Source: a virus. From it: a stretch of DNA of 64,000 nucleotides. Under the pieces are notes generated by a model. The model was given only the letters and a program-made list of their open reading frames with translations. It was not told where the DNA came from and did not search any database. The stretch spans positions 1 to 64,000 of the IMG/VR virus record IMGVR_UViG_3300037336_000025, one strand, 5' to 3'. This document shows, one piece after another, positions 16,146-37,526 of the stretch. The stretch's first letter is position 1, and the number at the start of each line of letters is the position of its first letter. Position numbers and translations under genes: made by a program.

Positions 16146-18815
16146 TTGAGTTACGTAGACGCTTTCTTTGACAGAGAGCAGGATTTAATTCGCGTCGTTG
16201 AACGAAACGAAAAAGGCGAAAGACATTTTAAAGAATATCCTGCTCGTCATATATTTTATTACCCAGACCCAAAAGGCAAGTTCCTTTCAATCAAGGGCGA
16301 ACCTTTAACCAGAGTTTCAAGCAGAAGCGTTAAAGAGCATCGCAAAGAGCTTTCAATCTACAGTGGAAAGAAACTGTATGAAAGCGATATCAACCCAATC
16401 TATCGTTGTCTAGAAGACAACTATCTTAATCAAGATGCCCCTAAGCTAAATGTAGCATGGTTCGACATTGAGGTAGACTTTGATCCAGAACGTGGCTATG
16501 CTTCGCCGGAAGATGCATTCATGCCAATTACTGCTATCGCTGTCTACCTACAATGGATGGAGACAATGGTGTGTTTAGCAATTCCTCCTAAGACACTAAG
16601 TATGGAAGAAGCTAAGAAGCAGGTTGAAGAATTTCCTAACACTATACTGTTTGATAACGAAGCAGACATGTTAGACACATTCTTAGATCTAATTCAAGAC
16701 TCGGACGTACTAAGTGGATGGAACAGTGAAGGCTTCGATATTCCCTACACGGTAAATCGTGTTACTAAAGTTCTAAGCAAAGAGGACACACGTAGATTCT
16801 GCTTGTGGAATCAATTCCCCAAGAAGCGTGAATACGAAAAGTACGGTAAGGCTGCTACTACATATGACTTAATTGGGCGTGTACACTTAGACAGTTTGAA
16901 CTTGTATCGTAAATACACGTATGAAGAACGGCATACCTATCGACTAGACGCTATTGGCGAGCAGGAAATTGGCGAGAACAAAACTGTCTACGAAGGTACA
17001 TTAGATCAGTTGTATAACAATGACTTTAAACGCTTCATTGAATATAACAGACAGGATACTATGCTTCTTGAGAAACTTGACAAGAAGTTAAAGTTTATGG
17101 ATCTTGCCAATACACTAGCACATGAGTGTACTGTGTTGTTGCAGACTACTATGGGCGCAGTAGCTGTTACTGAACAGGCCATTATTAACGAAGCTCATAA
17201 GCGTGGATTCATTGTTCCTAATCGCATCAGCCGTGACACTGAAGTAGATACACAGGCTGCTGGTGCATATGTTGCGTTTCCTAAGAAAGGTATTCACGAG
17301 TGGATTGGCTCTCTGGATATTAACTCACTATATCCTTCAGCAATTCGTGCATTGAACATGGGCCCAGAAACAATTGTTGGACAATTGCGTCAAGATGGTA
17401 CTAAAGACTTTATTGCCGCAGAGATGGCAAAAGGCCGTAGCTTTGCCGGCGCGTGGGAAGGTATCTTTGGTAGCTTAGAATACACTGCTGTTATGGATCG
17501 CAACGTTGGTCGAGAAATAACTATTGACTGGGAAGACGGCGGTCACGATACCCTAAGTGCTGCACAGGTATATGATTTGATCTTTGACAGCAATCAGCCT
17601 TGGATGCTGAGTGCTAACGGCACTATCTTTACTTACGAAAAAGAAGGTATTATTCCTGGATTGCTAAAGCGTTGGTATGCTGAACGTAAAGAAATGCAGG
17701 CTAAACTTAAAGACTGTATTAAGGCAGGTAATAAGATTGAAGAAGAATACTGGGACAAGCGTCAATTAGTCAAGAAGATTAACTTGAACAGTTTGTACGG
17801 TGCTATTCTTAACGCTGGCTGTAGATTCTTTGACAACCGTATTGGACAATCAACTACACTTACAGGCCGTGCCATTGCACAACACATGGCTGGTAAAGTA
17901 AATGAAATTATCACCGGCGAGTTTAATCACACAGGTAAGGCAATTATCTATGGTGATACTGACTCCTGTTACTTCTCAGCATATGCCACGCTGAGAAAAG
18001 AGATTGACAAGGGCACACTGCCTTGGACAAGAGAGAGTGTAATTGAACTTTACGATACTATAGGAGAAACAGTAAATGACACATTCCCCAAGTTTATGCA
18101 AGACGCATTCCATGTACCTAAATCACGAGGAGAGGTCATTAAAGCAGGTCGCGAGATTGTTGCTTCCAAAGGACTATTCATTACTAAAAAACGATACGCA
18201 GTCCTCTACTATGACAAAGAAGGCAAGCGAGCAGACACGGACGGACAGGGTGGTAAGATCAAGGCCATGGGTCTTGACCTTAAGCGTTCAGATACCCCGG
18301 TTATTATCCAAGAGTTTTTAAGTCAAGTATTAACTCGAGTGCTAAATGGTGATGGTCAAGAATCTATTCTAGAGTATATCACTGAATTCCGCACTGAGTT
18401 TAAACTACGTCCAGGTTGGGAGAAAGGTTCGCCTAAACGTGCCAATAAGATCTCAGAGTATCGTGACAAAGAAAAGAAAGCAGGTAAGACTACAATGCCC
18501 GGACATGTCCGTGCTAGTTTGAATTGGAACACTTTAAAGCGTATGATGGATGACAAATATTCAGTAGCTATTACAGACGGTGCTAAAGTTATTGTGTGTA
18601 AGGTTAAAGATAATCCAATGGGCTATACTAGTGTTGCATATCCTGTAGATGAATTGCGTTTGCCGCAGTGGTTTAAAGACTTACCATTTAATGATGCAGA
18701 AATGGAAAATGCTGTCATTGATGAAAAGTTGGAGAACTTAATCGGTGTACTAGACTGGGACCTCAGTTCAACCCGCAGTGATAATAATTTTAACAAACTA
18801 TTTGACTTTGAGTAA
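16146..18815 (+). CDS. family B DNA polymerase (T4 gp43-like)
   Basis: Exo I FDIEVD, Exo II SGWNSEGFDIPY, Exo III YNRQD; Pol SLDINSLYPS, KINLNSLYG, YGDTDS, KKRYA; TTG start with SD. Confidence 0.97.
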   Translation: MSYVDAFFDREQDLIRVVERNEKGERHFKEYPARHIFYYPDPKGKFLSIKGEPLTRVSSRSVKEHRKELSIYSGKKLYESDINPIYRCLEDNYLNQDAPKLNVAWFDIEVDFDPERGYASPEDAFMPITAIAVYLQWMETMVCLAIPPKTLSMEEAKKQVEEFPNTILFDNEADMLDTFLDLIQDSDVLSGWNSEGFDIPYTVNRVTKVLSKEDTRRFCLWNQFPKKREYEKYGKAATTYDLIGRVHLDSLNLYRKYTYEERHTYRLDAIGEQEIGENKTVYEGTLDQLYNNDFKRFIEYNRQDTMLLEKLDKKLKFMDLANTLAHECTVLLQTTMGAVAVTEQAIINEAHKRGFIVPNRISRDTEVDTQAAGAYVAFPKKGIHEWIGSLDINSLYPSAIRALNMGPETIVGQLRQDGTKDFIAAEMAKGRSFAGAWEGIFGSLEYTAVMDRNVGREITIDWEDGGHDTLSAAQVYDLIFDSNQPWMLSANGTIFTYEKEGIIPGLLKRWYAERKEMQAKLKDCIKAGNKIEEEYWDKRQLVKKINLNSLYGAILNAGCRFFDNRIGQSTTLTGRAIAQHMAGKVNEIITGEFNHTGKAIIYGDTDSCYFSAYATLRKEIDKGTLPWTRESVIELYDTIGETVNDTFPKFMQDAFHVPKSRGEVIKAGREIVASKGLFITKKRYAVLYYDKEGKRADTDGQGGKIKAMGLDLKRSDTPVIIQEFLSQVLTRVLNGDGQESILEYITEFRTEFKLRPGWEKGSPKRANKISEYRDKEKKAGKTTMPGHVRASLNWNTLKRMMDDKYSVAITDGAKVIVCKVKDNPMGYTSVAYPVDELRLPQWFKDLPFNDAEMENAVIDEKLENLIGVLDWDLSSTRSDNNFNKLFDFE

Positions 18816-18875: not shown

Positions 18876-19613
18876 ATGAAAGACATTTTACAAGACATCG
18901 TATCACACACCCAGAATCTAGGATTTTTAACTACAGTTAAGGTCACAGGTACAGAACGTGGTACAACTATTAACTCTATGGCTGACGATCGTTCAGTTAT
19001 CATGGAAGCTACTACTGCTAGCCCGCAACCAGATATGATTGGTGTGTTTGGCATGCCACAACTTAATAAACTGAAGTATTTGCTAGACGGTGCTGAGTAC
19101 AAAGAAGATGCTAAAATTAGTATCACTACAGCAGAACGTAACGGAGAAACATTGCCAGTTGGTTTACATTTTGAAAACAAAGATGGCGACTTTAAAAACG
19201 ATTACCGTTTTATGAATTCAGAAATCATTAACGAGAAAATGAAGACTGTTAAGTTCCGCGGTGTTAAGTGGGATGTAGAGATTGAACCTAGCGTTGCCGC
19301 AGTACAGCGTTTTAACTTCCAAGCTGGTGCTAATAATGAACATCCAACATTCTTGGCAAAAACAGATGGTAGCAATCTAAAGTTTATCTTTGGTGATGCT
19401 AGCACACACGGCGGTGAGTTTATCTTTGCACAAAACGTTGCAGGTAAATTGGATCGTGGTTGGACTTGGCCTATTGTGCCAATCTTGAGTATCCTTAAGA
19501 TTGCGGATGTTAACAACACAAAGATGTCTTTGAGTAATGAAGGTGCTATCCAGATTACTTTAGACAGCGGTCTTGCTACTTACAAATATATCATTCCAGC
19601 ACAAGCGGCCTAA
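18876..19613 (+). CDS. putative DNA polymerase sliding clamp (gp45/PCNA-like)
   Basis: 245 aa with alternating beta/alpha pattern, immediately downstream of the polymerase, C-terminal YKYIIPA as in clamp folds. Inferred from size and position only. Confidence 0.5.
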   Translation: MKDILQDIVSHTQNLGFLTTVKVTGTERGTTINSMADDRSVIMEATTASPQPDMIGVFGMPQLNKLKYLLDGAEYKEDAKISITTAERNGETLPVGLHFENKDGDFKNDYRFMNSEIINEKMKTVKFRGVKWDVEIEPSVAAVQRFNFQAGANNEHPTFLAKTDGSNLKFIFGDASTHGGEFIFAQNVAGKLDRGWTWPIVPILSILKIADVNNTKMSLSNEGAIQITLDSGLATYKYIIPAQAA

Positions 19614-19615
19614 AT

Positions 19616-19984
19616 ATGATTAAGGGCTTACAAGGTTATAACGGTGTAACGGTAAATGGCGGCAACACTGTCCTGCAGTATGTTGCCCCGAACGCTGCTA
19701 ATCCAATGATGGGTATGCTGAGAATCAACGGCACTGATATAGAAGTGTTTAATGGCTCCAGTTGGCAATACTTATCCACCAGCTATGCTACTGTAGGCCT
19801 TGATCAAGATATACTAGACATAGTACAATGGGTACGTAAGAAGCGTGACGAAGAATTAAAGTTGCATAGCTTGGCAAATGACAATAAGGCTGTTAAAATA
19901 GCATTAGACAATTTAGAACAGGCAAGACAACAATTAGATATAACAGTAAAATTATCGAGAGAATATGAGCAAACAACCAGTTGA
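19616..19984 (+). CDS. hypothetical protein (122 aa)
   Basis: Coupled ORF with a C-terminal coiled coil. Confidence 0.7.
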   Translation: MIKGLQGYNGVTVNGGNTVLQYVAPNAANPMMGMLRINGTDIEVFNGSSWQYLSTSYATVGLDQDILDIVQWVRKKRDEELKLHSLANDNKAVKIALDNLEQARQQLDITVKLSREYEQTTS

Positions 19985-21503
19985 TTTAACACCCCTACAG
20001 AAAGACTACGCAGTCTATTTGCCTGCGATTAGTAGTTTCTATTCTACCTACGTGGCAAAACAACGCAAGGGAGATTTTGTACCCAAAGATCGAATTCCAG
20101 CGGGTTTTGATCGAGGCATCGAAGGTATGAACTTCTTAAACCCAGAAGAAGGATACTTCTATTACAAGTACGGATTGTATTCAGCAGGCCATGCACAACT
20201 AGATCTAGTTAAGACTATGGATCATGACTCAATGATTCAGCAACGTGATCGCAACAAAACAATGATCTTGGGCGACTCCGGTGGTTACCAGATTGGTAAA
20301 GGTATCCTTAAGTTTGATTGGCTAGACTTTGAAGGCAAAAAAGCTAACAAGACTCGTGATGATATTCTTAACTGGCTTGAACTAACTGCTGATTGGTCAA
20401 TGATGCTGGACGTTCCTACGTGGGCATGTGACCATATTCATAGTCCAAAGACAGGACTAAAGTCATTTGAAGACTGTCTAGATAAAACTCGTCACAATAA
20501 CAAGTACTTCTTGGACAATCGTTTAGGTGCTACTAAGTTCCTAAACGTTCTACAAGGTAGTAACTGGGATACTGCCGAAGCGTGGTACGAAGGTGTTAAA
20601 GAGTTTAGCGATAAGAAAGTTTGGGGCGATAAAGCCGCTGAAGGGTGGGCAATGGGCGGTGCGAATATGTGTAAGATGCATATTGCACTACGCCGCATAA
20701 TCACTATGCGGTTTGACGGTATGCTAGAAGGCAAGGATTGGATGCACTTCTTGGGCACTGCACAATTAGATTGGTCGTGCTATTTGACCAGTATTCAACG
20801 TCAGGTCCGTAAACATATTAATCCTAACTTTACAATTAGCTTTGATTGTGCGTCGCCGTTTATTGCAACTGCACACGGACTTGTTTACACTAACAGTCAG
20901 CATACAGCCAAGCGGTGGAGTGTTATTATGGACAAAGCTCCAGATAATAAAGCACTTGCGTCGCGCCCGGACATTCCGTTTCCATTCGAAAGCGAGATTG
21001 GTCGCAGACTAAATGTTTCAGATATCTGTCACTACAAGCCAGGAATGTTAAACAAGATTGGCAAAGAAGGCAAGACTTCGTGGGACAGCTTTGGTTATGC
21101 ACTGATGATGGGTCATAATGTTTATCAACATATTGTTGCTGTACAACGTGCTAACAACTTGGCAGATATTGAACAGGCTAAGATCCGACCAGACTGGAGA
21201 CAGTGGAAGAAGAACAAAGATCGTGACATGAGTGACGAGTATAGTGATTGGGTTCCCCGTAACATTCTGTACTTTGATCGTTTTGTTGAAGAGCTGTTTG
21301 ACTGTCCAGACAAAGAATCCGCATTTGCTATGATTGCTGACGCAGAGACTAGAGGCTTTATGCAGAATTTGGAAGGCTCACGCTTGCGTGGTGGCGTTAC
21401 GAATATCTCAAACGACCTGTTCTATGAAGAAGGCAGTGAAGACAAAGATTCGTGGAACGATGATCGCGAAGATGGCGAATTGGATAAACTGGTAGCAGAA
21501 TAA
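19965..21503 (+). CDS. dpdA: tRNA-guanine transglycosylase-like protein, probable DNA 7-deazaguanine transglycosylase (DpdA family)
   Basis: TGT-fold motifs GDSGGYQ, MLDVP, LNVLQG, GWAMGG, MHFLG and FDCASP; clustered with folE, queE and a queD-like gene. Confidence 0.75.
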   Translation: MSKQPVDLTPLQKDYAVYLPAISSFYSTYVAKQRKGDFVPKDRIPAGFDRGIEGMNFLNPEEGYFYYKYGLYSAGHAQLDLVKTMDHDSMIQQRDRNKTMILGDSGGYQIGKGILKFDWLDFEGKKANKTRDDILNWLELTADWSMMLDVPTWACDHIHSPKTGLKSFEDCLDKTRHNNKYFLDNRLGATKFLNVLQGSNWDTAEAWYEGVKEFSDKKVWGDKAAEGWAMGGANMCKMHIALRRIITMRFDGMLEGKDWMHFLGTAQLDWSCYLTSIQRQVRKHINPNFTISFDCASPFIATAHGLVYTNSQHTAKRWSVIMDKAPDNKALASRPDIPFPFESEIGRRLNVSDICHYKPGMLNKIGKEGKTSWDSFGYALMMGHNVYQHIVAVQRANNLADIEQAKIRPDWRQWKKNKDRDMSDEYSDWVPRNILYFDRFVEELFDCPDKESAFAMIADAETRGFMQNLEGSRLRGGVTNISNDLFYEEGSEDKDSWNDDREDGELDKLVAE

Positions 21504-21505
21504 CA

Positions 21506-21534
21506 TTGCTAACTGAGCAATTTGATGCTATAAT
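21506..21534 (+). promoter_or_regulatory. sigma70-type promoter
   Basis: TTGCTA-17 nt-TATAAT with TGn extension; -35 inside inverted repeat ATTGCT-5-AGCAAT. Confidence 0.75.
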
Positions 21535-21540
21535 TAATGT

Positions 21541-21744
21541 ATGAATACACTATCACTTAATCGTAAACAAATTGAAAAGCTCACCGAGATAGTGACCCAT
21601 TTTAAAGAAGTAGAATGGTTCACTATCAGGGTAGATCGTAGTAGTGGCATAGGGGAAGGGATTACTATTGAATTTAATCTCTTTAATGACAATGATAAAG
21701 ATGTCGATACTAAAATTGACATCACTGATTTGAGTACATGGTAA
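21541..21744 (+). CDS. hypothetical protein (67 aa)
   Basis: ATG 6 nt after the -10 box, no SD. Confidence 0.7.
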   Translation: MNTLSLNRKQIEKLTEIVTHFKEVEWFTIRVDRSSGIGEGITIEFNLFNDNDKDVDTKIDITDLSTW

Positions 21745-22184
21745 TGGGTGAAGATCAAGGACTTAACAAGTACGAAACATTTGCCAAGAATATGGAAGAA
21801 CAGTTTCCCAAGATGTTTGCAGGTGATTACGGCGGCTTTTCTGTAGGCGCTGGCTGGTATCTACTGTTAGAAACACTCTGTTCTAATATCCAGCATCACC
21901 TCAACTGGAAGAATAAAACAGCGGAAGTTGTTCCACAAGTAACTGTGGCACAGATTAAAGAAAAGTTTGGTGGACTGCGTTTCTACTACGATGGCGGCGA
22001 TGACTACATTCGCGGTCTAGTTAGCATGGCAGAATCGTGGGCAGACATTACATGCGAAGAGTGTGGTAGTGTTGGAAAGAGACGAGGCGACGGATGGATA
22101 CGTACATTGTGTGATGTCCATGAAGCAGAACTGCAAGAACGTAAACGCACACAAGAAATGAAAGATGGAGGTTTTGAAGAATGA
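21744..22184 (+). CDS. conserved phage protein with C-terminal Cys/His zinc-binding motif
   Basis: QIKEKFGGLRFY...TCEECG...GWIRTLCDVH; start probably the ATG overlapping the upstream stop (track gives 21738). Confidence 0.7.
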   Translation: MGEDQGLNKYETFAKNMEEQFPKMFAGDYGGFSVGAGWYLLLETLCSNIQHHLNWKNKTAEVVPQVTVAQIKEKFGGLRFYYDGGDDYIRGLVSMAESWADITCEECGSVGKRRGDGWIRTLCDVHEAELQERKRTQEMKDGGFEE

Positions 22185-22693
22185 AACGTGATTACGCAGA
22201 CGGCGTTGCTGACGATATTGTATTCTTTATCGGTAATGAAGTAGAACATACTCCTGCATACGGGTTAAAAACTTTGTTTGTTACAGGCGTACAACCTGTA
22301 GGAAATATTGCATTGAATTTACAGGGCTGTGAGCATATCTTCTTTGGCGCTAATCATAGTTTTAACCCTAAAGACTACGAAGAGCATAAGTGTTGGGAAG
22401 AGATGATCTTTTACTTTTTGAAGAAAGAGTATCTGTGCAGTCTAGATATTCCAATGAGCCAGGTAGAAGAGTTTCATGAAAGCGGTTACTGCGAATACAA
22501 TAACTTTATTCCGCAGATTCGTGTGCCTATTCCATATATCAAGTTATGGAATTATAATACAATGCTAAAGATTGATGATAAAGATTTTAAAGCAACCAAT
22601 CCCGGCGTATGGTCTCATAGTCTACATACGCTAATGGATCGTAGTAAGTTTGCAGACTGGTCACAATACAAAAACGATGAGATTGTAAAGTAA
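22181..22693 (+). CDS. conserved hypothetical protein in the deazaguanine locus
   Basis: FIGNEVEHTPAYGLKTLFV...HIFFGANHSF; coupled on both sides. Confidence 0.7.
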   Translation: MKRDYADGVADDIVFFIGNEVEHTPAYGLKTLFVTGVQPVGNIALNLQGCEHIFFGANHSFNPKDYEEHKCWEEMIFYFLKKEYLCSLDIPMSQVEEFHESGYCEYNNFIPQIRVPIPYIKLWNYNTMLKIDDKDFKATNPGVWSHSLHTLMDRSKFADWSQYKNDEIVK

Positions 22694-23094
22694 TGGGACC
22701 ACATGGATCAGCATACACAACTGCCTCTAGTAAAGTATCAACCCGTAATTCACGTGGAATAGGCACTAGCGGTTGCCGAGTTCAAGGCACACACACCGCA
22801 GTTAATAAAGTAAAGAGCATAAAAATGACATTGAAACAACGATTCCGCAACTGGCTCCTTAATCAAAATAACGACGCGATTGAGTACGAGAAGCCCACTA
22901 GAGAATCAGAAGAGCGTTTTCATAGCGATGGCATGAAACTACAGGTCTACAAAGGTAGTGGCGGCTTTGTAGTAGAAGTTCGTAACTATGATCGTAAACG
23001 TGATGAGGACAATAATAAAATGTACATCATTCACGATGACAAAGACCTCGGTGAGGAACTTGGTAAAATTATAACTATGGAAAGTATGAGATGA
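22693..23094 (+). CDS. hypothetical protein (133 aa)
   Basis: Coupled ORF. Confidence 0.65.
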   Translation: MGPHGSAYTTASSKVSTRNSRGIGTSGCRVQGTHTAVNKVKSIKMTLKQRFRNWLLNQNNDAIEYEKPTRESEERFHSDGMKLQVYKGSGGFVVEVRNYDRKRDEDNNKMYIIHDDKDLGEELGKIITMESMR

Positions 23095-23339
23095 ACCAAA
23101 AAATTAAACGTGCATTAGACAAGGCAACTGAAAATATTTTAGGTGTCAATGTTACCAATCAAGAGAATTTTGCTAGACTATTGCTAGAAGAATGTGTTAC
23201 AATTATTGATAATATGCAATTTACTAAAGAAGGTCCAACAGAGGCAGCACAGTATCAACGTACACTTTGTGGATCTACAATCAAAGAGCATTTCGGGTTG
23301 CAAGGCAAAGGACCTATATCATCAAAGTACATTCTATGA
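23091..23339 (+). CDS. hypothetical protein (82 aa)
   Basis: ATGA overlaps at both ends. Confidence 0.6.
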   Translation: MNQKIKRALDKATENILGVNVTNQENFARLLLEECVTIIDNMQFTKEGPTEAAQYQRTLCGSTIKEHFGLQGKGPISSKYIL

Positions 23340-23716
23340 TTATTAAACAAGACATTCGCCCAGCAACTATGACTTTTATTAAAGTTCGTACAGAATTTGA
23401 AGGGTTTCACTATTACCCAAACGCTGGATCAATTGATCCACGTATCCAGTTTCTTGAAAATGAACATCGACACATGTTCAAAGTTGAAGTAAAGATTAGT
23501 GTTACACACTTAGACCGTGAATTAGAGTTCTTCCTTGTTAAGTGGGCATTGGCAGAATTTATTAAAGACGGTAAAATGAATCACAAGAGTTGCGAAATGA
23601 TTGCAACAGACATCTTGGAAAAGCATTTGATTCCAGCATATGGATCAAATCGATACTACGAAATTGTAGTGTCAGAAGACGGTGAATCCGATGGTATCAT
23701 CGAATACAAACCATAA
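23336..23716 (+). CDS. QueD-like T-fold protein (6-carboxytetrahydropterin synthase / DpdL-like)
   Basis: FEGFH...FLENEHRHMF...SCEMIA parallels the QueD F.AAH/HxH/TAENIA pattern but has LxxxHRHxF instead of CxxxHGH; ATGA-coupled start at 23336 (track 23267). Confidence 0.7.
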   Translation: MIIKQDIRPATMTFIKVRTEFEGFHYYPNAGSIDPRIQFLENEHRHMFKVEVKISVTHLDRELEFFLVKWALAEFIKDGKMNHKSCEMIATDILEKHLIPAYGSNRYYEIVVSEDGESDGIIEYKP

Positions 23717-23749
23717 TAATAATATTATTAAGTACTAAGGAAAGCTAAC

Positions 23750-24007
23750 ATGGCTAAGAATTACCGCGACGTTGCCTATTTTGAAAATCGCCCCGACATT
23801 GTTCGGATCTTTGATGACTTGGAAGCGTTTCAAGACTTTTGTCGTATGGAACTTCGAGAGTTTGACCCTGCGGAAATTTACCGCAAAGAAGGTGCTCCTA
23901 ACTATGGTGCGTTCCTAGCAAGCAAGCGACCGCGCCGGCCTTACCTAGGCAAGAACCCACGTTGGGATAATAACGGAAAGCGCAATGAGCAGAATTTTTC
24001 TCGTTGA
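23750..24007 (+). CDS. hypothetical protein (85 aa)
   Basis: AAGGA SD; overlaps the glycosyltransferase start. Confidence 0.7.
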   Translation: MAKNYRDVAYFENRPDIVRIFDDLEAFQDFCRMELREFDPAEIYRKEGAPNYGAFLASKRPRRPYLGKNPRWDNNGKRNEQNFSR

Positions 24008-25058
24008 TTTAGAAGCAGTCGAGACAAGGTACACGGGACAATGGCAGTCCCATGTGCCTGCCTTACTACGAAAGAAAGGACACAATGTTCAAATTATATC
24101 AGGCCCTGCGGATATTCCTAGTGCAACTACTCCTGGAGCGTTTCTCAACTTTGGCGGAACTAATATATACAAGGCTAGTCAAGTTGAGCAGCTGGGCCGT
24201 TTATTTTGTAATGGAGCCGTTCGCCCAGGTGATCATTTTATATTTACTGATGCTTGGCACCCTGGTATCATCAATCTCAAGTACATGAGCGAATTACTGG
24301 GTATTCCAGTAACTACACATGGACTATGGCATGCTGGCAGTTATGACCCACAAGACTTTTTAGGACGTCTTGTTGGTAATAAGCCTTGGGTTAGACACGC
24401 TGAGAAAAGTTTCTTTCATGCGTTCGATCATAACTATTTTGCTACGAATTTTCATATCGATATGTTTCGTAACAATTTGTTAGAGGTTAACTTAGGTACA
24501 GTTTATAACTATAAAGTTTCTAAGAAGATTGTCCAGACTGGGTGGCCCATGGAGTATATGGAAGATACATTGACTATGTATAAGAACATGCCAAAGCGTG
24601 ACCTTATACTGTTCCCTCATCGCATAGCGCCAGAGAAACAAGTAGATATCTTTCGTGACTTAGCTATGCACTTGCCTCAGTATGAGTTTGTTGTATGTCA
24701 GGATCAACAGCTGACAAAGAATGAATACCATAATCTGCTAGGACAATCTAAGATTGTGTTTAGTGCAAACTTGCAAGAAACGTTAGGCATTAGTTGGTAT
24801 GAAGGTGCATTAGTGGGCGCTGTTCCAATGATGCCAGATAGACTAAGCTACAGCGAAATGGCATTTGATACTTTCAAGTATCCGAGCGAATGGACTGATA
24901 CTTGGGAGAACTATAATATCCATAGACAAGAAATCTGCTACAAGATTATACAGTACATGGAAAATTACGAAAAGTTTTTACCCAGCCTAAATAAACAAGT
25001 AGATGCATTAACTGAACATTATTTTAGTTGCAATAAACTATTAGAGATGCTAAAATAA
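23985..25058 (+). CDS. GT-B fold glycosyltransferase (GT4-like)
   Basis: C-terminal PHRIAPEK and QETLGISWYEGALVGAVPMMPDRLSYSE match the GT4 nucleotide-sugar-binding ExFG...E motif. Confidence 0.75.
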   Translation: MSRIFLVDLEAVETRYTGQWQSHVPALLRKKGHNVQIISGPADIPSATTPGAFLNFGGTNIYKASQVEQLGRLFCNGAVRPGDHFIFTDAWHPGIINLKYMSELLGIPVTTHGLWHAGSYDPQDFLGRLVGNKPWVRHAEKSFFHAFDHNYFATNFHIDMFRNNLLEVNLGTVYNYKVSKKIVQTGWPMEYMEDTLTMYKNMPKRDLILFPHRIAPEKQVDIFRDLAMHLPQYEFVVCQDQQLTKNEYHNLLGQSKIVFSANLQETLGISWYEGALVGAVPMMPDRLSYSEMAFDTFKYPSEWTDTWENYNIHRQEICYKIIQYMENYEKFLPSLNKQVDALTEHYFSCNKLLEMLK

Positions 25059-25100
25059 AACTATACAGGCAATCCACTGCTTAAACATCGGAGAAATATA

Positions 25101-25817
25101 TTGACACAATTGAATTATAGAGAAGAAGACGGAAGACCGCTAAGCCAGGTCATTCGCGAAAGACTCAAGAACGGTAACAAACGATTCTGGGCTGGCGACA
25201 ACATTAGCGAGTACATCAGCGATGTTGAAAAAAATATGCTGATCACAGAAGCTGCTACCGCATTTGAAGGTGTGCTCGATGCCTTGCTGATTGATCGAGA
25301 AACAGATCCTAACTCAAAAGGTACGGCCAAGCGATTGGCCAAAATGTACTACAACGAAATAATGGAGGGTAGATATGTTCCAGCACCGGACGCAACGGCT
25401 TTTCCAAATGATTCAGCAGACCGTTACGAAGGTATGTTGGTTGTACGTAGTGAGTTGCGTAGCATGTGTTCACATCATCACCAGCCTGTTACTGGTGTTG
25501 CTTATATTGGTATCATCGCCGCCAACAAACTTATTGGTCTTAGCAAGTATACTCGCATTGCTCAGTGGTGCGCTCGCCGTGGCACTCTACAAGAAGAACT
25601 ATGTAATGACATTGCTCGAGAAATTAGTAAAGCTACTGATTCAGAAAACGTAGGTGTATATTTAAGAATGACTCATGGATGTTGTGAGAACCGAGGCATA
25701 ATGGCACACGATAGTTCAACAACTACTTCAGTGCTTAAAGGTGCGTTTAATAAAGATCCAGGCACAAAGAAAGAGTTCTTTGATACATTGAGTCTCCAAG
25801 AATCCAATAAGCGATAA
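25101..25817 (+). CDS. folE: GTP cyclohydrolase I
   Basis: TAKRLAKMY, RSMCSHHHQP, GLSKYTRIA, LQEEL and HGCCENRG; TTG start after GGAGA. Confidence 0.95.
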   Translation: MTQLNYREEDGRPLSQVIRERLKNGNKRFWAGDNISEYISDVEKNMLITEAATAFEGVLDALLIDRETDPNSKGTAKRLAKMYYNEIMEGRYVPAPDATAFPNDSADRYEGMLVVRSELRSMCSHHHQPVTGVAYIGIIAANKLIGLSKYTRIAQWCARRGTLQEELCNDIAREISKATDSENVGVYLRMTHGCCENRGIMAHDSSTTTSVLKGAFNKDPGTKKEFFDTLSLQESNKR

Positions 25818-25853
25818 GTGTATTGCTTCTTTAGTAAATATGGAGACACGTAA

Positions 25854-26330
25854 ATGAAATGGTTTCTCGATTTTTTAGATAGGCTGGGTCGTAAACGTAT
25901 AATTATGGATCGAGTGAGCAACGAACCGTTGTTAACCCGTTATTATCTTTTTCTAAAAGATCGAAAGCATTTTCCGTTTAATGTGTTTCTACACAAGTTC
26001 CATAAAGGTGATCCAGATGATGTTCACGATCATCCATGGTGTTATTTTACTTTAATTTTAAAAGGTGGCTATTATGAATGGATTCCAGAATTTAATCCAG
26101 ATGGTACAAAAAGTTGCGAGATTCGTAAGTGGCGTGGACCCGGTCATTTTCGCGTGTCTAGCCCTACTAGTTATCACCGCATTGAATTAAAAGAAGGAAT
26201 AACTCCTTGGACATTGTTTATGCCAGGTCCCCACAACCGAGAATGGGGATTTCTAGTAAATGATGAATGGATTCAAAATGAATATTATTTAAAAACTCGT
26301 AAAGAACAAAATGAACAAACTCATAATTAA
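25854..26330 (+). CDS. cupin-fold protein
   Basis: LHKF...DDVHDHPW.YFTLILKGGYYE...YHRI metal-binding cupin pattern. Confidence 0.65.
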   Translation: MKWFLDFLDRLGRKRIIMDRVSNEPLLTRYYLFLKDRKHFPFNVFLHKFHKGDPDDVHDHPWCYFTLILKGGYYEWIPEFNPDGTKSCEIRKWRGPGHFRVSSPTSYHRIELKEGITPWTLFMPGPHNREWGFLVNDEWIQNEYYLKTRKEQNEQTHN

Positions 26331-26808
26331 TGACAGAAAATTTAAAGGTTTAGTTTCTACTATCTGTAGAGAGATTGCCGCAGATAATTGGAAGCCGGAT
26401 TTCATTGTAGGACTTACAAGAGGCGGATTATTGCCTGCTGTAATGATCAGCCATTACTTAAACGTTCCCATGCAATCGTTAGATATCAGTTTGCGTGACG
26501 GCGGAGAGTGTACTAGCAATCTAGGCATGGCCGAAGATGCGTTTTACGGAAAGAACATTCTTGTTGTTGACGACATTAATGATCAAGGCAGTACACTAAA
26601 CTGGCTGATGAATGATTGGCCAAGTGGCTGTTTTCCAGATGACCCCCATTGGCAACAGGTATGGAGTAACAACGTAAGATTTGCTGTTGTTGTTGATAAC
26701 TTATCTAGCCAATGCAGCGTAGGTATGAACTACTGTGGTATGGAAGTTAACAAAGCCGAAAACGATGTGTGGATTGAATTTCCTTATGAAGAATGGTGGA
26801 CAAAATGA
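26311..26808 (+). CDS. type I phosphoribosyltransferase (Gpt/Hpt-like)
   Basis: IVGLTRGGLLPA, PRPP motif ILVVDDINDQGSTL, C-terminal WIEFPYE. Confidence 0.85.
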   Translation: MNKLIINDRKFKGLVSTICREIAADNWKPDFIVGLTRGGLLPAVMISHYLNVPMQSLDISLRDGGECTSNLGMAEDAFYGKNILVVDDINDQGSTLNWLMNDWPSGCFPDDPHWQQVWSNNVRFAVVVDNLSSQCSVGMNYCGMEVNKAENDVWIEFPYEEWWTK

Positions 26809-27047
26809 GTGTAATAACTAGGCACGGTAACACATGTACTGTTACTCAGGTTTCCAGTAAAAGAGAGATGGAGGCTGAAGTCATGCAGTGTAACGAGGGA
26901 CGTAACCTTACTGTGGTTATGAACAAGAGTGTTAAACTATTGATGAATTGGAATGGTAGTAAGTATGAAGGTCGCATGGCGGGCATGGACTTTGAAAGCG
27001 CAGGTCCTAAGATTAGTAAGACTAGTACTAATTTAAGAGGCCGATGA
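26805..27047 (+). CDS. hypothetical protein (80 aa)
   Basis: ATGA-coupled start at 26805. Confidence 0.65.
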   Translation: MSVITRHGNTCTVTQVSSKREMEAEVMQCNEGRNLTVVMNKSVKLLMNWNGSKYEGRMAGMDFESAGPKISKTSTNLRGR

Positions 27048-27238
27048 ATACTATACTCGTTCCTTGGGATAATCAAAATAGTCATTGGTGGAATGAAACC
27101 TGCGCGATGGTTTTAGAACAGTTTGGGCTTCCTGGTGATAAGTACACATCCCATCCTACAGAAAATTCAATGTCGTTTGAGTTCAATAACGAACAAGACG
27201 CATTACTTTGTAAAATATTATTAAGTGATAGAATATGA
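27044..27238 (+). CDS. hypothetical protein (64 aa)
   Basis: ATGA-coupled at both ends. Confidence 0.6.
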   Translation: MNTILVPWDNQNSHWWNETCAMVLEQFGLPGDKYTSHPTENSMSFEFNNEQDALLCKILLSDRI

Positions 27239-27399
27239 CACACTGGACAGTTACCCTAAAAGAAGATCCCGAGAATGGCGATCTTATTATGCCAATACCG
27301 CAAGATCTGTTAGATATGCAAAATTGGAAAGAAGGAGACACATTAGAATGGCTAGATCAAGGCAACGGTTCTTGGCAATTACAGAAAAAGAGTGTATAA
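27235..27399 (+). CDS. AbrB/SpoVT/MazE-like small DNA-binding protein (54 aa)
   Basis: Missing from the ORF track. MTHWTVTLKEDPENGDLIMPIPQDLLDMQNWKEGDTLEWLDQGNGSWQLQKKSV*, showing the G.L..P.P..L....W.EGD.LEW swapped-hairpin pattern; ATGA-coupled. Confidence 0.75.
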   Translation: MTHWTVTLKEDPENGDLIMPIPQDLLDMQNWKEGDTLEWLDQGNGSWQLQKKSV

Positions 27400-27405
27400 T
27401 AAACT

Positions 27406-28251
27406 ATGAGTAAAATTAAAATCGCAGAGCTGTTTTACAGCATTCAAGGTGAAGGACGTTATATGGGCGTCCCTTCTGTATTTCTACGCACATTTGGTTG
27501 CAACTTTACGTGTAGCGGATTTGGCATGCCTAGAGGTGAACTAAGCAAGGAAGCTGAAGAAATTTCAGTAGTTGCTCATATGTTTGCAAAATACGAGGAC
27601 TTGCCACTAGTTAGTACTGGCTGTGATAGCTACGCTAGCTGGATGCCAGAGTTCAAAACTCTTAGTCCGATGCTTACAAGCGAAGCAATTGTAGATCGTA
27701 TTATGGAAATTCTCCCGCAGGATCATTGGAAGGACGAACACTTGGTTATTACAGGCGGCGAGCCGCTACTGGGCTGGCAACGTGCTTATCCGGATTTGCT
27801 TAACAACACCAAGATGCGTGACTTGAAAGAGATTACTTTTGAAACAAACGGTACTCAAAAACTGACTCCGGAGTTTAAAGGTTTCTTGGCTAAGTGGAAT
27901 AGTGAAGTAGGTAAAGAACTTACATTCAGTGTAAGTGCTAAACTGCCATGCAGTGGTGAAAAGTGGGAAGACGCTATTAAGCCAGAAGTTGTTTGTGAGT
28001 ATGAAGAAGTTGGTACAGCATATTTGAAGTTTGTTATTGCTACAGAACAAGACTTTGCCGATGCCGAACGTGCAATTGCTGCATTCCGTGCAGCAGGGTT
28101 TAAAGGACATGTCTACTTAATGCCAGTCGGCGGTGTCGAAAGTGTATATGCTATGAACAATAAGAACGTAGCAGTGCTAGCTATGAAGAACGGTTTGCGA
28201 TACAGTGACCGACTGCAAGTGCCGCTGTTTAAAAATGAGTGGGGTACATAA
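27406..28251 (+). CDS. queE: 7-carboxy-7-deazaguanine synthase (radical SAM)
   Basis: ELFYSIQGEG...VFLRTFGCNFTC...GCDS, VITGGEPLL, ITFETNGT, SVSAK, LKFV and SDRLQV. Confidence 0.92.
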   Translation: MSKIKIAELFYSIQGEGRYMGVPSVFLRTFGCNFTCSGFGMPRGELSKEAEEISVVAHMFAKYEDLPLVSTGCDSYASWMPEFKTLSPMLTSEAIVDRIMEILPQDHWKDEHLVITGGEPLLGWQRAYPDLLNNTKMRDLKEITFETNGTQKLTPEFKGFLAKWNSEVGKELTFSVSAKLPCSGEKWEDAIKPEVVCEYEEVGTAYLKFVIATEQDFADAERAIAAFRAAGFKGHVYLMPVGGVESVYAMNNKNVAVLAMKNGLRYSDRLQVPLFKNEWGT

Positions 28252-28691
28252 TGAACAAGTGGGTTGAAAAATTGTTTGGCATTGATAAGATCAAAGCCGA
28301 AACTAAACGTGCTGTAGAAGATGCAGAACGTTCTATGCAAATTGCAAAAGAAGCAACAGAACAAGCAGTGCTTGCTAAAGAAGCAGAAGAAGTAGCGAAA
28401 CTTAGCGCAAAAGATAAAGCAACTCGTTTAAAAGAACCTTGGGTAGGTGTAATCGAAACACATGTAAACAAAGACAACATCCGTAATGGGTTTTTTGAGC
28501 TTGACTGGAACGAACAGTTTGTGTTAAAATTAAAGCAAGAAGGTTACGGGTTTGATGGCGACAAAGAAGAAGAGATTGTCGATCGTTGGTTCCGTGAACT
28601 ATGCGCAGGCGTAGTGATAGATGGTGATTTCGGCGGTGCAGTAAACACTGGTGTGATCGATATTAACACAGTTAAAAAGAACAACAAATGA
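28251..28691 (+). CDS. hypothetical protein (N-terminal coiled coil)
   Basis: Start probably ATG 28251, overlapping the queE stop. Confidence 0.7.
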   Translation: MNKWVEKLFGIDKIKAETKRAVEDAERSMQIAKEATEQAVLAKEAEEVAKLSAKDKATRLKEPWVGVIETHVNKDNIRNGFFELDWNEQFVLKLKQEGYGFDGDKEEEIVDRWFRELCAGVVIDGDFGGAVNTGVIDINTVKKNNK

Positions 28692-29674
28692 ATTACATTA
28701 TAGTTGATACAGCAAATACATTCTTCCGTGCTAGACACGTTATTAACGGCGACGCTGATATTAAGCTAGGCATGGCGTTTCATATCACTCTTAACAGCGT
28801 GAAGAAGGCGTGGCAAGACTTTAACGGCAGTCACGTTATCTTCTGTTTAGAAGGTCGCAGCTGGCGCAAAGATTACTACAAGCCTTATAAAGCTCAACGT
28901 GCAGCAGCTCGTGCCGCACATACCGAAAAAGAAGCAGACGAAGAAAAAATCTTCTGGGAAGCATTTGACACGTTTAAAGACTTTATCAAAGATAAGACTA
29001 ACTGTACAGTTATGCAACATCCTCGCCTAGAAGCAGATGATCTTATTGCTGGCTGGATACAGAGTCATCCTAACGACAATCACATCATTATTAGTACTGA
29101 CACTGACTTTGTACAATTAATTGCGCCTAATGTAAAACAGTACAACGGTGTAATGGAAACTACAATTACCCATGAAGGCGTATTTGACGCAAAAGGTAAA
29201 AGAGTCATTGACAAGAAAACACAACTACCTAAAGCAATCCCAGATCCAGAGTGGTTGTTGTTTGAAAAATGTATGCGTGGCGATACTAGCGATAATGTCT
29301 TCTCAGCATATCCCGGTGTACGCACTAAAGGCACAAGCAAAAAAGTAGGCCTTACTGAAGCGTTTGAAGATCGTAAAAGCAAAGGCTTTTCGTGGAACAA
29401 CCTAATGCTACAGAGATGGACTGACCACAACGGACTAGAACATCGAGTGCTAGAAGATTACGAACGCAATCGTCGACTCATCGACCTTGCACACCAGCCC
29501 GACGATATTAAATCTATTATGGTTGAGAATATTGCAGAAGCAACTAGTGCTAATAAAAACATTAGTCAAGTTGGTCTGCGACTTATGAAGTTTTGCGGAC
29601 TGTACGATCTAAAGAAGATTTCAGATCAAGCACAAGCATATGCTGAACCTTTAAATGCGAGATACACACTATGA
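28688..29674 (+). CDS. rnh: 5'-3' exonuclease / RNase H (T4 rnh, FEN family)
   Basis: IIVDTAN, EGRSWRKDYYKPYKAQR, LEADDLIA, ISTDTDFVQL, GDTSDNV and ERNRRLIDL. Confidence 0.9.
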   Translation: MNYIIVDTANTFFRARHVINGDADIKLGMAFHITLNSVKKAWQDFNGSHVIFCLEGRSWRKDYYKPYKAQRAAARAAHTEKEADEEKIFWEAFDTFKDFIKDKTNCTVMQHPRLEADDLIAGWIQSHPNDNHIIISTDTDFVQLIAPNVKQYNGVMETTITHEGVFDAKGKRVIDKKTQLPKAIPDPEWLLFEKCMRGDTSDNVFSAYPGVRTKGTSKKVGLTEAFEDRKSKGFSWNNLMLQRWTDHNGLEHRVLEDYERNRRLIDLAHQPDDIKSIMVENIAEATSANKNISQVGLRLMKFCGLYDLKKISDQAQAYAEPLNARYTL

Positions 29675-32283: not shown

Positions 32284-32581
32284 TCGGCTGTTTAAACCTC
32301 CAAGACATCTGGTCAAAGAATGGCCAGAAGTCTTTGAGGATCTTTATATGAATACAGTGCCTATAGCTTATCTAGATGTAGTTCATCTGGAGTTTGCTAA
32401 CGGCAGAGTATGGGAAATTAATATTAAAGAACAGACTATTAATTTAGACCCAGATGCAATTGCTACTAGATTAGTAGAAACGCTTCGAGAGTATAAAGAC
32501 GAGATTGTGAAAATAGAGTTTAAGGTTGATATAGTTAGACTTAAAACCGACATTAATAAATCAACTAAAACTATTTTTTAA
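32276..32581 (+). CDS. hypothetical protein (101 aa), last gene of the + strand block
   Basis: Stop overlaps the convergent - strand stop at 32578-32580. Confidence 0.7.
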   Translation: MPSRLFKPPRHLVKEWPEVFEDLYMNTVPIAYLDVVHLEFANGRVWEINIKEQTINLDPDAIATRLVETLREYKDEIVKIEFKVDIVRLKTDINKSTKTIF

Positions 32582-33363
32582 TTAATATGGTTAGCAATTA
32601 ATTCAGCCATATGTCTAGCTGAATTTCTTCCAGGGTGTACTAAGTCTCTTGCTTGATTATCAATTTCAATCCATGCACTTTCTGTGTAGTGTGCTGTTTG
32701 GTCAAAAAAACTAGCAGAATAATACTTGCACCGATTTTTCCAAAGTTCTCTACTTGCAATAGATATGTAACTAGCTTCTGTCATTGAATGATAGATGTTA
32801 GTTGCATATTCTTTGTACATAGCAGTATCATCCCACGGTCCGGCGTGCTCTATTAGTTGTTCTTTAAAAATAGTAAATCTGTCTATATTTGTCCATAAGT
32901 TGACTACAGCATACGGAGTTGGAAAATTCTTAGATAGTAATGTTGAGTTTATAAAAGAAAATTGCATAGAAGATGCACTAGCGCCCATATTAACCACTGG
33001 TCTATTTAACATTTTAGACAATTGAGCAGTAACTGTTTCATCCTCGGCTAACCCTACTCCTAGTGTGCAAGAACATCCAAATACTACAACAGCATTTTGC
33101 CAGTCAATTAAATGCCACTCGTCTGCTCTATAACCATTAAGATTGCAAGCGTATGTTACTTCTTTTGATCGGTAATGCCAGTCATCTGGCTGAGTTTGTA
33201 AATTTTTCTCAAACAGGGCAGGCGAATCATACGAAGTAAACTTATTTGAATAAATTTGGTGCCCGGGTGTTGCATCGTCTGCGTAATTTAGTATTAAGGA
33301 TTTTAAAAATTTATAATCAGTTACATAATCAGGCAACGGGCTTGCATTTAGCAACTTATACAT
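32578..33363 (-). CDS. SGNH/GDSL-like hydrolase or acyltransferase
   Basis: VFGCSCTLGVG block I, NMGASASS block II, DLVHPG block V; start ATG 33363 (track TTG 33420). Confidence 0.6.
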   Translation of the reverse strand: MYKLLNASPLPDYVTDYKFLKSLILNYADDATPGHQIYSNKFTSYDSPALFEKNLQTQPDDWHYRSKEVTYACNLNGYRADEWHLIDWQNAVVVFGCSCTLGVGLAEDETVTAQLSKMLNRPVVNMGASASSMQFSFINSTLLSKNFPTPYAVVNLWTNIDRFTIFKEQLIEHAGPWDDTAMYKEYATNIYHSMTEASYISIASRELWKNRCKYYSASFFDQTAHYTESAWIEIDNQARDLVHPGRNSARHMAELIANHIN

Positions 33364-33364
33364 A

Positions 33365-34396
33365 TTACGCCGTAATGAATTTAAAAAGTTCTTGTGCAAA
33401 TAGATCGTGCCCCTTTGCACTAGGATGGCAACACAATGTTACCCAATTGTTAGGTGTTCCTTTGCCATTATAATCCCAATATGGTGTATTTTCTAGCCCT
33501 TCTTGTTTTAAACACAAGTTCATAAAGGTATCACATCCTTGAGGGGTGAACATGTTGGCCCAAGGCCATTGGTCTACTATTGCGCTAAAAATATCGAGAA
33601 CTTCCTGAGAGCGGCGTATTTCATTTTTATTATGGGCATATTCAACATATCTTATAGTTTTCTGATTACTAGTTCTCTCTGATAGATCTTGAATAATTTC
33701 ATTAAATCTTTCTTGTTTGTACGATGTATCAAATCCAGGAGTAATTATTAATTTTGCATTTTTTAATTTGCACCAGTTTTCTAATTCAATAACATTTGAT
33801 ATTTGCTCTAGCATTGCTGACTTTTCGCTATATATTGCAGTACCGTATCCTTTCCATAGCGTTTTTCTAGGGCCTTTTTCTTGATCGTCGGACCAAGGCC
33901 ATGCACACTGAAACTGATGGTGTTCATTGAATTCGTCACTTACAAAATCAAATCGTTCAGGCCCGCTTGGAACATATAGCACTATTAATTCGTCAATGTT
34001 GTTCCAGTTTATTTGAGGATGAAAATATAAACTTTTAATGGACGCCCGATTGCCCTTTCCCCTAATACCAAAATTAATAGGAGTATACGTGCCCTTAAAA
34101 TATTTTTTACATAATACTTCAACAAATGCATTCTTGTATTCCATAAATTTCCAAATTATACGGCCAGTGTTATCTATTGATAGCTCTGGATGATCAGATA
34201 GCATTTTAGACTTTTCATTTTTTGATAAAATTGGTTCCATAGGAACTCCAATCTTAGCCATAGACCATTGATAGCTATCGCAAATTTCTTGATCGACTGC
34301 TCCTTGGCCTTCAACAAATGAACATCCTAAACTAATAATTGCTTTTCGTGTTCTTTTTAAATCTTTATTAATTTCAATAATTTGAGTATTATACAT
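33365..34396 (-). CDS. SGNH/GDSL-like protein (paralogue of the previous gene)
   Basis: SLGCSFVEGQG, NFGIRGKGN and CHPSAKGH. Confidence 0.6.
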   Translation of the reverse strand: MYNTQIIEINKDLKRTRKAIISLGCSFVEGQGAVDQEICDSYQWSMAKIGVPMEPILSKNEKSKMLSDHPELSIDNTGRIIWKFMEYKNAFVEVLCKKYFKGTYTPINFGIRGKGNRASIKSLYFHPQINWNNIDELIVLYVPSGPERFDFVSDEFNEHHQFQCAWPWSDDQEKGPRKTLWKGYGTAIYSEKSAMLEQISNVIELENWCKLKNAKLIITPGFDTSYKQERFNEIIQDLSERTSNQKTIRYVEYAHNKNEIRRSQEVLDIFSAIVDQWPWANMFTPQGCDTFMNLCLKQEGLENTPYWDYNGKGTPNNWVTLCCHPSAKGHDLFAQELFKFITA

Positions 34397-34398
34397 TT

Positions 34399-35724: not shown

Positions 35725-36509
35725 AATCGATTCCATTGTTCAACTGACGTTCCGTTAGTAACACTGCGCCGTTCTATTAAATCTAGAATATCTTGGTTAT
35801 TTTTTTGATGAGCGGTCGGGGCAAATAATGCCCGGTTTCGTTGATTGGTATCTGCAGGAGGGGATATTAAGTAATACATTGCTATACTGTTTCTTGATAT
35901 ATTTATCGGTGAAGTTACAGGCGTAGATAACCCATGCCAACAATGTTGGGTTGTATCAAAAAATATAGCTCTGTTAAATGTTGGTAATATTTCTTTAAGT
36001 AATGCTGTTGGAGATGTTCCGTCTGTATCCCATATTCCAAAATTCCCTCCCCAAGTATGTTGCCATTCGGGAGTAAGGTAAATGAGAAGATTAAATTTTC
36101 GTTGTAATCCTAACTTAGGATGAAGACTGTAATCAAGATGAGGATTAAGTTTGCCTCCTCGAGGATGCGAATGCATTCCACCACCGTGAATCCCAGGATC
36201 ACTGTATAAGTGATCAAGTCCGGTGTGACTTAATAGAACATTAATAAAATCTGTTGAGTTAAGATACGTTATTAGCTTATAAATGCTTGCTGGGAATCTA
36301 TCCCATATATTACAAGTACGCTTCAGTTCAATTTGATTATCATAGTTGCCGTTAAATAATCCAGAATCATACGCAAGAAAATCTGCTGCTATCTGGGTAG
36401 CAACATCTTCATTTAAAAAATTATCAATTACACAGTGTGAATATTTTTCTTTATGAAAATTATCAAATGCTGTTGATAAATTATTAATATTAATTAAACT
36501 ATTAGCCAT
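35721..36509 (-). CDS. 2OG-Fe(II) oxygenase (prolyl-hydroxylase-like)
   Basis: LNPHLDY (HxD)...LLIYL...GG...FNRAIFF...WHG...R.SIA. Confidence 0.8.
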   Translation of the reverse strand: MANSLININNLSTAFDNFHKEKYSHCVIDNFLNEDVATQIAADFLAYDSGLFNGNYDNQIELKRTCNIWDRFPASIYKLITYLNSTDFINVLLSHTGLDHLYSDPGIHGGGMHSHPRGGKLNPHLDYSLHPKLGLQRKFNLLIYLTPEWQHTWGGNFGIWDTDGTSPTALLKEILPTFNRAIFFDTTQHCWHGLSTPVTSPINISRNSIAMYYLISPPADTNQRNRALFAPTAHQKNNQDILDLIERRSVTNGTSVEQWNRL

Positions 36510-37519: not shown

Positions 37520-37526
37520 AGTGTCC

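Follow-up and report, generated by a model that had tools for sequence, protein, structure and literature searches.

The first 64,000 nucleotides (hereafter the window) of the viral record IMGVR_UViG_3300037336_000025 carry a tight run of plus-strand genes at 19965-28251, between a family-B DNA polymerase gene and a 5'-3' exonuclease/RNase H gene. We think that this locus is probably a guanine hypermodification module set in the replication block, in which a DpdA-type enzyme inserts a non-cyano 7-deazaguanine into DNA. The product is most likely 7-deazaguanine itself, as its deoxynucleoside (dDG), or a sugar-decorated 7-deazaguanine; that the inserted base is glycosylated is a tentative part of this proposal. 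With this locus, the class marked by the protein DpdL gains a new member. 7-Deazaguanine modifications of DNA protect phages against both restriction enzymes and CRISPR; to our knowledge, the known derivatives number only eight. Least understood among them is the DpdL branch, whose decarboxylase is only predicted and whose reconstitution has failed. The locus supplies candidates for the missing parts of this branch: a glycosyltransferase (GT) that travels with the transglycosylase, a conserved 170-residue protein and a purine phosphoribosyltransferase (PRTase). The whole record is 186,312 bp long, has a CheckV completeness of 53%, and recurs in salt-lake metagenomes from 2017-2020. We estimate that it comes from an uncultured giant phage that is related to PA5oct and has a genome of ~350 kb.

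The gene at 19965..21503 (plus strand) encodes a divergent, DpdA-like protein of 512 residues with the fold of a tRNA-guanine transglycosylase (TGT). We refer to it as the TGT-like protein. By sequence it did not match Pfam, PHROGs, NCBIfam or the PDB, and single-sequence PDB searches with this protein and with the T-fold protein described below returned only noise. Its AlphaFold2 model (pLDDT 91, pTM 0.90) retrieved TGTs as all of the top 50 Foldseek matches (E ~1e-8), and VIA-align returned only tRNA-guanine transglycosylases (Z 18.5, 305 residues, root-mean-square deviation 4.5). A search of 1.84 billion cluster representatives gave 899 relatives at E ≤ 0.001, that is, 899 clusters at 50% identity, and the family includes thousands of metagenomic proteins. 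When 67 diverse members were aligned, S73, D104, S105, G107, P151, H261 and D294 were invariant and D149 was near-invariant. The family motifs are GDSGGYQ (D104), LDVP (D149) and SFDCAS (D294). The best PDB matches of the family profile were all Zymomonas TGT and were weak (E ~0.2); the same alignment places DSGGYQ at D102, LDVP at D156 and LQG at Q203 of the Z. mobilis enzyme. Judging from its motif, D294 may be the equivalent of the TGT nucleophile D280. Fold and active site therefore bear out the label ‘TGT/DpdA-like’, which an earlier note on this DNA had given the protein.

We also placed the TGT-like protein against the DpdA subfamilies, and it fitted none of those that we compared. The Pfam TGT model PF01702, which is assumed to recognize DpdA1, DpdA2 and bacterial DpdA, matched neither the protein at E ≤ 0.01 nor any part of a six-frame search of the record at E ≤ 1. 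The model PF20314 (DUF6610), which represents the DpdA4 type of archaeal viruses, likewise gave no match to the protein at E ≤ 0.01. An hhalign comparison with DpdA3 of phage phiST (CGPG_00065) gave a probability of 70% and an E value of 4e-5, over only 83 columns and between proteins of 512 and 259 residues. The PDB search with the family profile found tRNA TGTs only and no DpdA chain. These comparisons suggest that the TGT-like protein represents a new DpdA-like family outside the subfamilies represented by PF01702 and PF20314, and only remotely like that of CGPG_00065. The nearest named relative is EST35_0316 of PA5oct, which is 45% identical. At the profile level, a sister group is formed by ACP17 gp123, BUCT-ZZ01 UTS52034 and the ‘queuine tRNA-ribosyltransferase’ of X1 (hhalign 97-98%). 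BCSR5 QRE00062 was put in this sister group by its neighbourhood and a DSGGFQ motif only, as its blastp match to BUCT-ZZ01 UTS52034 was marginal (E 0.007). Genes of the TGT-like type are encoded together with 7-deazaguanine synthesis genes in this locus, in PA5oct, in the phage genome G006, in loci L184, L185 and L186, and in the bacterial island L095. The locus and its relatives reveal a very large transglycosylase family that had gone without annotation. In the literature that we searched, we found no description of this family, of its recurrent GT partner, or of the sugar genes in its sister clusters.

Distant members of the family, 31-39% identical, adjoin phage integrases in bacterial islands (L092, L093, L094 and L095), where their partners are proteins of 553-614 residues of unknown function. 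One of these islands also carries a radical-SAM gene, a PTPS-type protein without the cysteine (YGRLHGH) and a GT of the same family as that in the window. Such islands may serve in DNA modification or defence.

The gene at 23336..23716 (plus strand) encodes a T-fold protein, a paralogue of QueD without the catalytic cysteine. It did not match the Pfam PTPS model. Its sequence contains FLENEHRHMF (motif LENEHRHMF), which fits LxxxHRHxF, the signature that replaces the CxxxHGH of QueD in DpdL (PMC10516641); the earlier note had given this signature correctly. It is kept in 16 of 17 aligned homologues, the exception being PA5oct, which has HFH. By blastp, the protein is homologous to the founding DpdL, CGPG_00067 of phiST (2e-13), and to ACP17 gp125 (6e-19), and the family profile matches phiST DpdL at 7.7e-39. 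Thus, the protein is a DpdL homologue, and we propose from its sequence that it acts as a decarboxylase of 7-carboxy-7-deazaguanine (CDG). It occurs on the record with the TGT-like protein, FolE and QueE, and without QueC; QueD is found only in relatives, and a weak QueC-family gene is found in two of them. There are two DpdL alleles in the lineage, and that of the window is 67% identical to the DpdL of the T4-like cyanophage BUCT-ZZ01. We compared window positions 22181-24007 with loci L007, L012, L015, L022, L023 and L025. In phages whose TGT-like proteins are 96-97% identical to that of the window, DpdL was only ~40% identical and the 170-residue protein ~53%. The stretch from the TGT-like gene to the GT gene is thus a mosaic, which suggests that alleles have been replaced by recombination.

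Two enzymes of the pathway that makes CDG lie in the same run. FolE, a GTP cyclohydrolase I, is encoded at 25101..25817 (plus strand; Pfam PF01227, 1.5e-37, and NCBIfam FolE models). A probable QueE of a divergent phage type, the CDG synthase, is encoded at 27406..28251 (plus strand; PHROG 2076 QueE-like, 1e-50). The five best NCBIfam matches of the latter were all QueE models, at 3e-16 to 2e-10 and far below the cut-offs, and the protein is 49% identical to the QueE of BUCT-ZZ01. Searches by hidden Markov models and tblastn found no QueC, QueF, canonical QueD or canonical TGT in the window or in the whole record. The absence of queC and queF, first remarked for the window, thus extends over all 186,312 bp, and queD is absent there as well.

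A true QueD had been expected from elsewhere in the genome, and synteny with relatives bears this out. In the phage genome G001, which is colinear with the window from 400 to 24300, a QueD recognized by Pfam lies 49 kb upstream of the TGT-like gene; this position falls 27-29 kb before the point where our record starts. In the phage genome G008, QueD lies 53 kb upstream of the TGT-like gene, and PA5oct has both FolE and QueD at a distance of 53 kb upstream. The region that is syntenic with the FolE-QueD part of PA5oct is absent from this record. Synteny explains the missing QueD: in G001, G008 and PA5oct the gene is 49-54 kb upstream of the TGT-like gene, and only 20 kb of upstream sequence are part of this record. 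In G006 (349 kb, 97% complete), adjacent FolE and QueD genes are found inside the cluster itself.

No QueC was found in G006 or in any of four complete genomes (PA5oct, BUCT-ZZ01, ACP17 and BCSR5). In G008, whose TGT-like protein is 80% identical to that of the window, a 278-residue protein with the PP-loop SGGADS and a CxxCxxC motif lies just above the Pfam QueC threshold at 24.1 bits (G008:C1:243294-244100; L188:974-1810, minus strand), 76 kb upstream of the TGT-like gene. The phage genome G007 has a protein of ~280 residues with a CxxCxxC zinc motif that matches Pfam QueC at 39.5 bits (L189:404-1255). Two paralogous PP-loop proteins of 310 residues in G001 (G001:C1:72553-78700; L087 and L088), with SGGLDS and SGGIDS motifs, match the N-terminus of the QueC model weakly; we rejected them as QueC candidates, as they lack a cysteine cluster and match nothing in the PDB.

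The module has a stable core. We counted genes in 34 related loci with sufficient flank. The TGT-like protein, the 170-residue protein, DpdL, the GT, FolE and a cupin were each present in 34/34 loci, QueE in 33/34 and the PRTase in 24/34. The TGT-like enzyme was the most conserved of them (median identity 83%).

The gene at 23985..25058 (plus strand) encodes a protein of 357 residues that we predict to be a group-1 (GT-B) glycosyltransferase. It has the E-x7-E motif ETLGISWYE. The protein itself did not match Pfam, but its family profile and its relatives carry PF00534, with homologues in X1 (45.5 bits) and BCSR5 (42 bits). The family profile also matches the glucosyltransferase 8xsg at 2.5e-6, in the C-terminal domain only. 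In PA5oct, ACP17, X1, BCSR5, BUCT-ZZ01, G006, L184 and L097, the TGT-like gene or DpdL has a GT of this family as its neighbour, and the same holds in the bacterial integrase island with the radical-SAM gene and the cysteine-less PTPS. The GT thus accompanies the TGT-like enzyme repeatedly, in no fewer than nine phage lineages and in one bacterial island. Sugar-handling genes occur in several of these clusters. G006 has a nucleoside diphosphate (NDP)-sugar 4,6-dehydratase together with an aminotransferase of the DegT type, L184 has a GHMP sugar kinase together with a nucleotidyltransferase, BCSR5 has a deacetylase of the PIG-L type, and PA5oct has an epimerase-like gene. The record contains no gene of the thymidylate-synthase or dCMP-hydroxymethylase families, and a hydroxymethylpyrimidine as acceptor for the GT is therefore unsupported here.

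The earlier note had listed a further-decorated base among its options, and this option gains weight because the GT is conserved. We therefore suggest, as a possibility, that this phage, PA5oct, ACP17, X1, BCSR5 and their relatives carry sugar-decorated 7-deazaguanine in their DNA, made through a core of a cysteine-less QueD-like T-fold protein, a dedicated group-1 GT and a new DpdA subfamily; with the same reserve, we suggest that this core is common to phages and bacterial genomic islands. T4 alpha- and beta-glucosyltransferases act on hydroxymethylcytosine, and glycosylated queuosine is found in eukaryotic tRNA. Our candidate would resemble these in being a GT-B enzyme that acts on an already modified base, and would differ in the base and the acceptor. 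We found no report of a sugar on a comparable DNA purine in the literature searched. If the suggestion is true, this base would be the first purine hypermodification of DNA to carry a sugar.

The closest living parallel is the locus EST35_0316-0322 of PA5oct, which shares the gene order from the polymerase to the RNase H. Its proteins are identical to those of the window at 45% (TGT-like), 43% (GT), 31% (DpdL), 30% (PRTase) and 30% (QueE). It differs in that its FolE sits with QueD far upstream, its locus has no homologue of the cupin or the 170-residue protein, its DpdL has HFH instead of HRH, and an extra epimerase-like gene is present. PA5oct DNA resists five restriction enzymes with G in their sites and is cleaved by nucleases specific for modified G (PMC12191111). 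As PA5oct carries the same module and has modified G in its DNA, it supports DNA modification by a living relative. PA5oct is also a cultured phage studied for therapeutic use, and the chemistry can thus be tested.

The best characterized parallel is phiST, which uses FolE, QueD, QueE, DpdL and DpdA3 and carries dDG at full replacement (Cui, Hutinet et al., NAR 2023, PMC10516641). The window resembles phiST in its FolE and QueE, in a DpdL with LxxxHRHxF, in the lack of QueC on the record, in a TGT-superfamily enzyme near replication genes, and probably in a true QueD placed elsewhere in the genome. In contrast, the transglycosylase of the window, with 512 residues, is only remotely like the 259-residue DpdA3. 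The window also adds a GT, a purine PRTase, a cupin and the 170-residue protein, and lacks the kinase-like and MazG-like genes of phiST. In phiST, the P-loop kinase-like protein (AAA_18) lies between DpdA3 and DpdL, next to a MazG-like pyrophosphatase (L003 7338-7817 and 6436-7023); these genes hint at nucleotide-level steps in the only phage of this class with measured dDG. ACP17, X1 and BUCT-ZZ01 share the core of DpdL, GT, TGT-like protein and QueE, together with FolE and QueD. Their TGT-like proteins are shorter (416-446 residues), have DSGGLQ and SYDSTT motifs, and are linked to ours at the profile level only (98% by hhalign). The bacterial Dpd system, in which DpdA and DpdB put preQ0 into DNA, likewise ties a TGT-fold enzyme to 7-deazaguanine synthesis genes; it differs in that no DpdB or DpdC homologue was recognized here and QueC is absent.

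Three further genes belong to the run. A purine PRTase of the xanthine or hypoxanthine-guanine phosphoribosyltransferase type is encoded at 26311..26808 (plus strand; Pfam PF00156, 3.5e-12; NCBIfam xanthine PRTase, 2.9e-9), and homologues lie in the clusters of BUCT-ZZ01, PA5oct and L186. The cupin is encoded at 25854..26330 (plus strand), has an HDH...H metal motif and matches PHROG 4786 ‘cysteine dioxygenase’ at 1e-32; in the PDB its profile found only Cupin_2 matches at E 0.5-1. It belongs to the core in this lineage. We dropped it as a general partner of the pathway, as its homologues in the unrelated phages BcepNazgul and MiCath do not lie near deazaguanine genes. The core gene at 22181..22693 (plus strand) encodes the 170-residue alpha/beta protein, with homologues in ACP17 (gp122), G006 and L184. 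Its model (pLDDT 84.5) matched no fold above background (best Foldseek E 0.03; best Z 6.3 in the wide VIA-align search), and in the ESM Atlas it found only unnamed viral clusters.

We propose that the module works as follows. FolE would convert GTP to dihydroneopterin triphosphate, a canonical QueD encoded off the record would make 6-carboxytetrahydropterin (CPH4), and QueE would make CDG. The DpdL-type T-fold protein may then remove the carboxyl group and convert CDG to 7-deazaguanine (DG), a step that has been proposed in the literature. The TGT-fold enzyme would swap guanine already present in phage DNA, rather than in tRNA, for the 7-deazaguanine base. The GT could glycosylate either the base itself or its precursor. 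The guanine that is released might be salvaged by the PRTase to GMP and hence back to GTP. The outcome would be DNA that is left uncut by G-dependent restriction enzymes. We found no tRNA genes in the window, and we count this in favour of the proposal.

Several points weigh against this proposal. DpdL has no demonstrated activity; the conversion of CDG to DG has only been proposed and has never been reconstituted (PMC10516641). In E. coli, dpdL together with dpdA of either phiST or ACP17 gave no dDG, and the authors suggest that additional enzymes may be needed (PMC10516641). None of the curated models for TGT or DpdA recognizes the TGT-like protein. No GT turned up in the examined flanks of phiST, RHph_I1_18, Ahp1, L185 and L186, and DG offers no obvious hydroxyl for a sugar. 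The substrate of the PRTase could equally be a deazapurine. Finally, the record is only ~53% complete and a weak QueC-family protein is present in G007 and G008, and a QueC-like step to 7-amido-7-deazaguanine (ADG) or preQ0 is therefore possible.

Some of these points fit a rival explanation, in which the phage makes plain dDG as phiST does and the GT, the cupin and the 170-residue protein serve other ends, kept together by the shared ancestry of the replication block. The GT could then glycosylate a protein or another base. We regard this explanation as plausible, though rather unlikely. phiST achieves full replacement with dDG using FolE, QueD, QueE, DpdL and DpdA. It is the one DpdL phage in which dDG has been measured, and it has no GT closer than 7 kb to dpdL. 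The lack of an evident sugar acceptor on DG, the scatter of cupin homologues in unrelated phages away from deazaguanine genes, and the failure to find the GT close to the TGT-like gene of L185 or L186 are consistent with it. However, the GT adjoins the TGT-like gene or DpdL across the T4-like cyanophage, Busanvirus ACP17, Xanthomonas X1, Burkholderia BCSR5, PA5oct and a bacterial island, at identities of 24-43%, and genes for sugar activation and sugar tailoring lie inside the same clusters.

A second explanation places the modification before replication. PRTase-type formation of 7-deazapurine nucleotides is known from TubC in tubercidin biosynthesis. In the same manner, the PRTase of the locus might turn DG or CDG and phosphoribosyl pyrophosphate into a 7-deazapurine nucleotide, which would enter the deoxynucleoside triphosphate pool and be used by the polymerase, leaving the TGT-like protein an auxiliary, repair or tRNA role. 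A purine-type PRTase is indeed kept in the clusters of this phage, BUCT-ZZ01, PA5oct and L186. The kinase-like and MazG-like genes beside dpdL in phiST, and the HIT-domain proteins, nucleotide hydrolases, inside the clusters of G006 (L132 9522-9917) and L184 (14758-15138), would also suit such a route. Nevertheless, we consider it improbable. The aspartates of base exchange are kept in all 67 aligned TGT-like members and the TGT-like gene is the best conserved of the module, whereas the PRTase was found in only 24 of the 34 related loci. In addition, according to the literature, every known 7-deazaguanine modification of DNA is made after replication.

The last explanation, that the missing half of the genome encodes a QueC-like enzyme, so that ADG, preQ0 or a derivative is inserted and DpdL has another role, is very improbable: the G008 and G007 proteins do pass as weak QueC matches, but their similarity is confined to the C-terminal zinc part of the model, the 82 kb spanned upstream of the TGT-like gene in G001 hold only the two PP-loop proteins without a cysteine cluster, neither PA5oct nor G006 has QueC, and DpdL is present in every one of the related loci.

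All of the genes named in the earlier note (TGT-like, QueD-like, FolE, QueE, GT, PRTase and cupin) are real plus-strand open reading frames at the coordinates it gave. That note had set the locus downstream of a polymerase and a clamp. The polymerase stands: the gene at 16146..18815 (plus strand) encodes a family-B DNA polymerase (PHROG 262, 2.7e-198) that is 50% identical to the PA5oct polymerase. The clamp label was not confirmed: the 245-residue conserved protein encoded at 18876..19613 (plus strand) has as its sole match PHROG 12062, of unknown function, and its PA5oct homologue (0314) was detected in virions by mass spectrometry and is annotated as a virion structural protein. The downstream boundary is the 5'-3' exonuclease/RNase H at 28688..29674 (plus strand; Pfam PF02739, 4.5e-19), which is 51% identical to the RNase H of PA5oct.

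Of 50,697 phage records, none matched the locus by megablast. Promoter-like and terminator-like sites in the window numbered 42, compared with 39.4 in shuffled sequence, and are thus not enriched. Further along, at 32578-42737 on the minus strand, the window contains a block of low-GC genes (32-36% compared with ~40%). The block encodes a 2-oxoglutarate-Fe(II) oxygenase (35721-36509, minus strand), an NDP-sugar 4,6-dehydratase/epimerase (36494-37549, minus strand) and a radical-SAM protein (37527-38894, minus strand). It could supply a sugar donor to the GT; we rejected it as the counterpart of the G006 sugar genes, to which it is not orthologous. The deazaguanine cluster of G006 itself also contains a B12-binding radical-SAM protein of 665 residues (L132 11368-13365).

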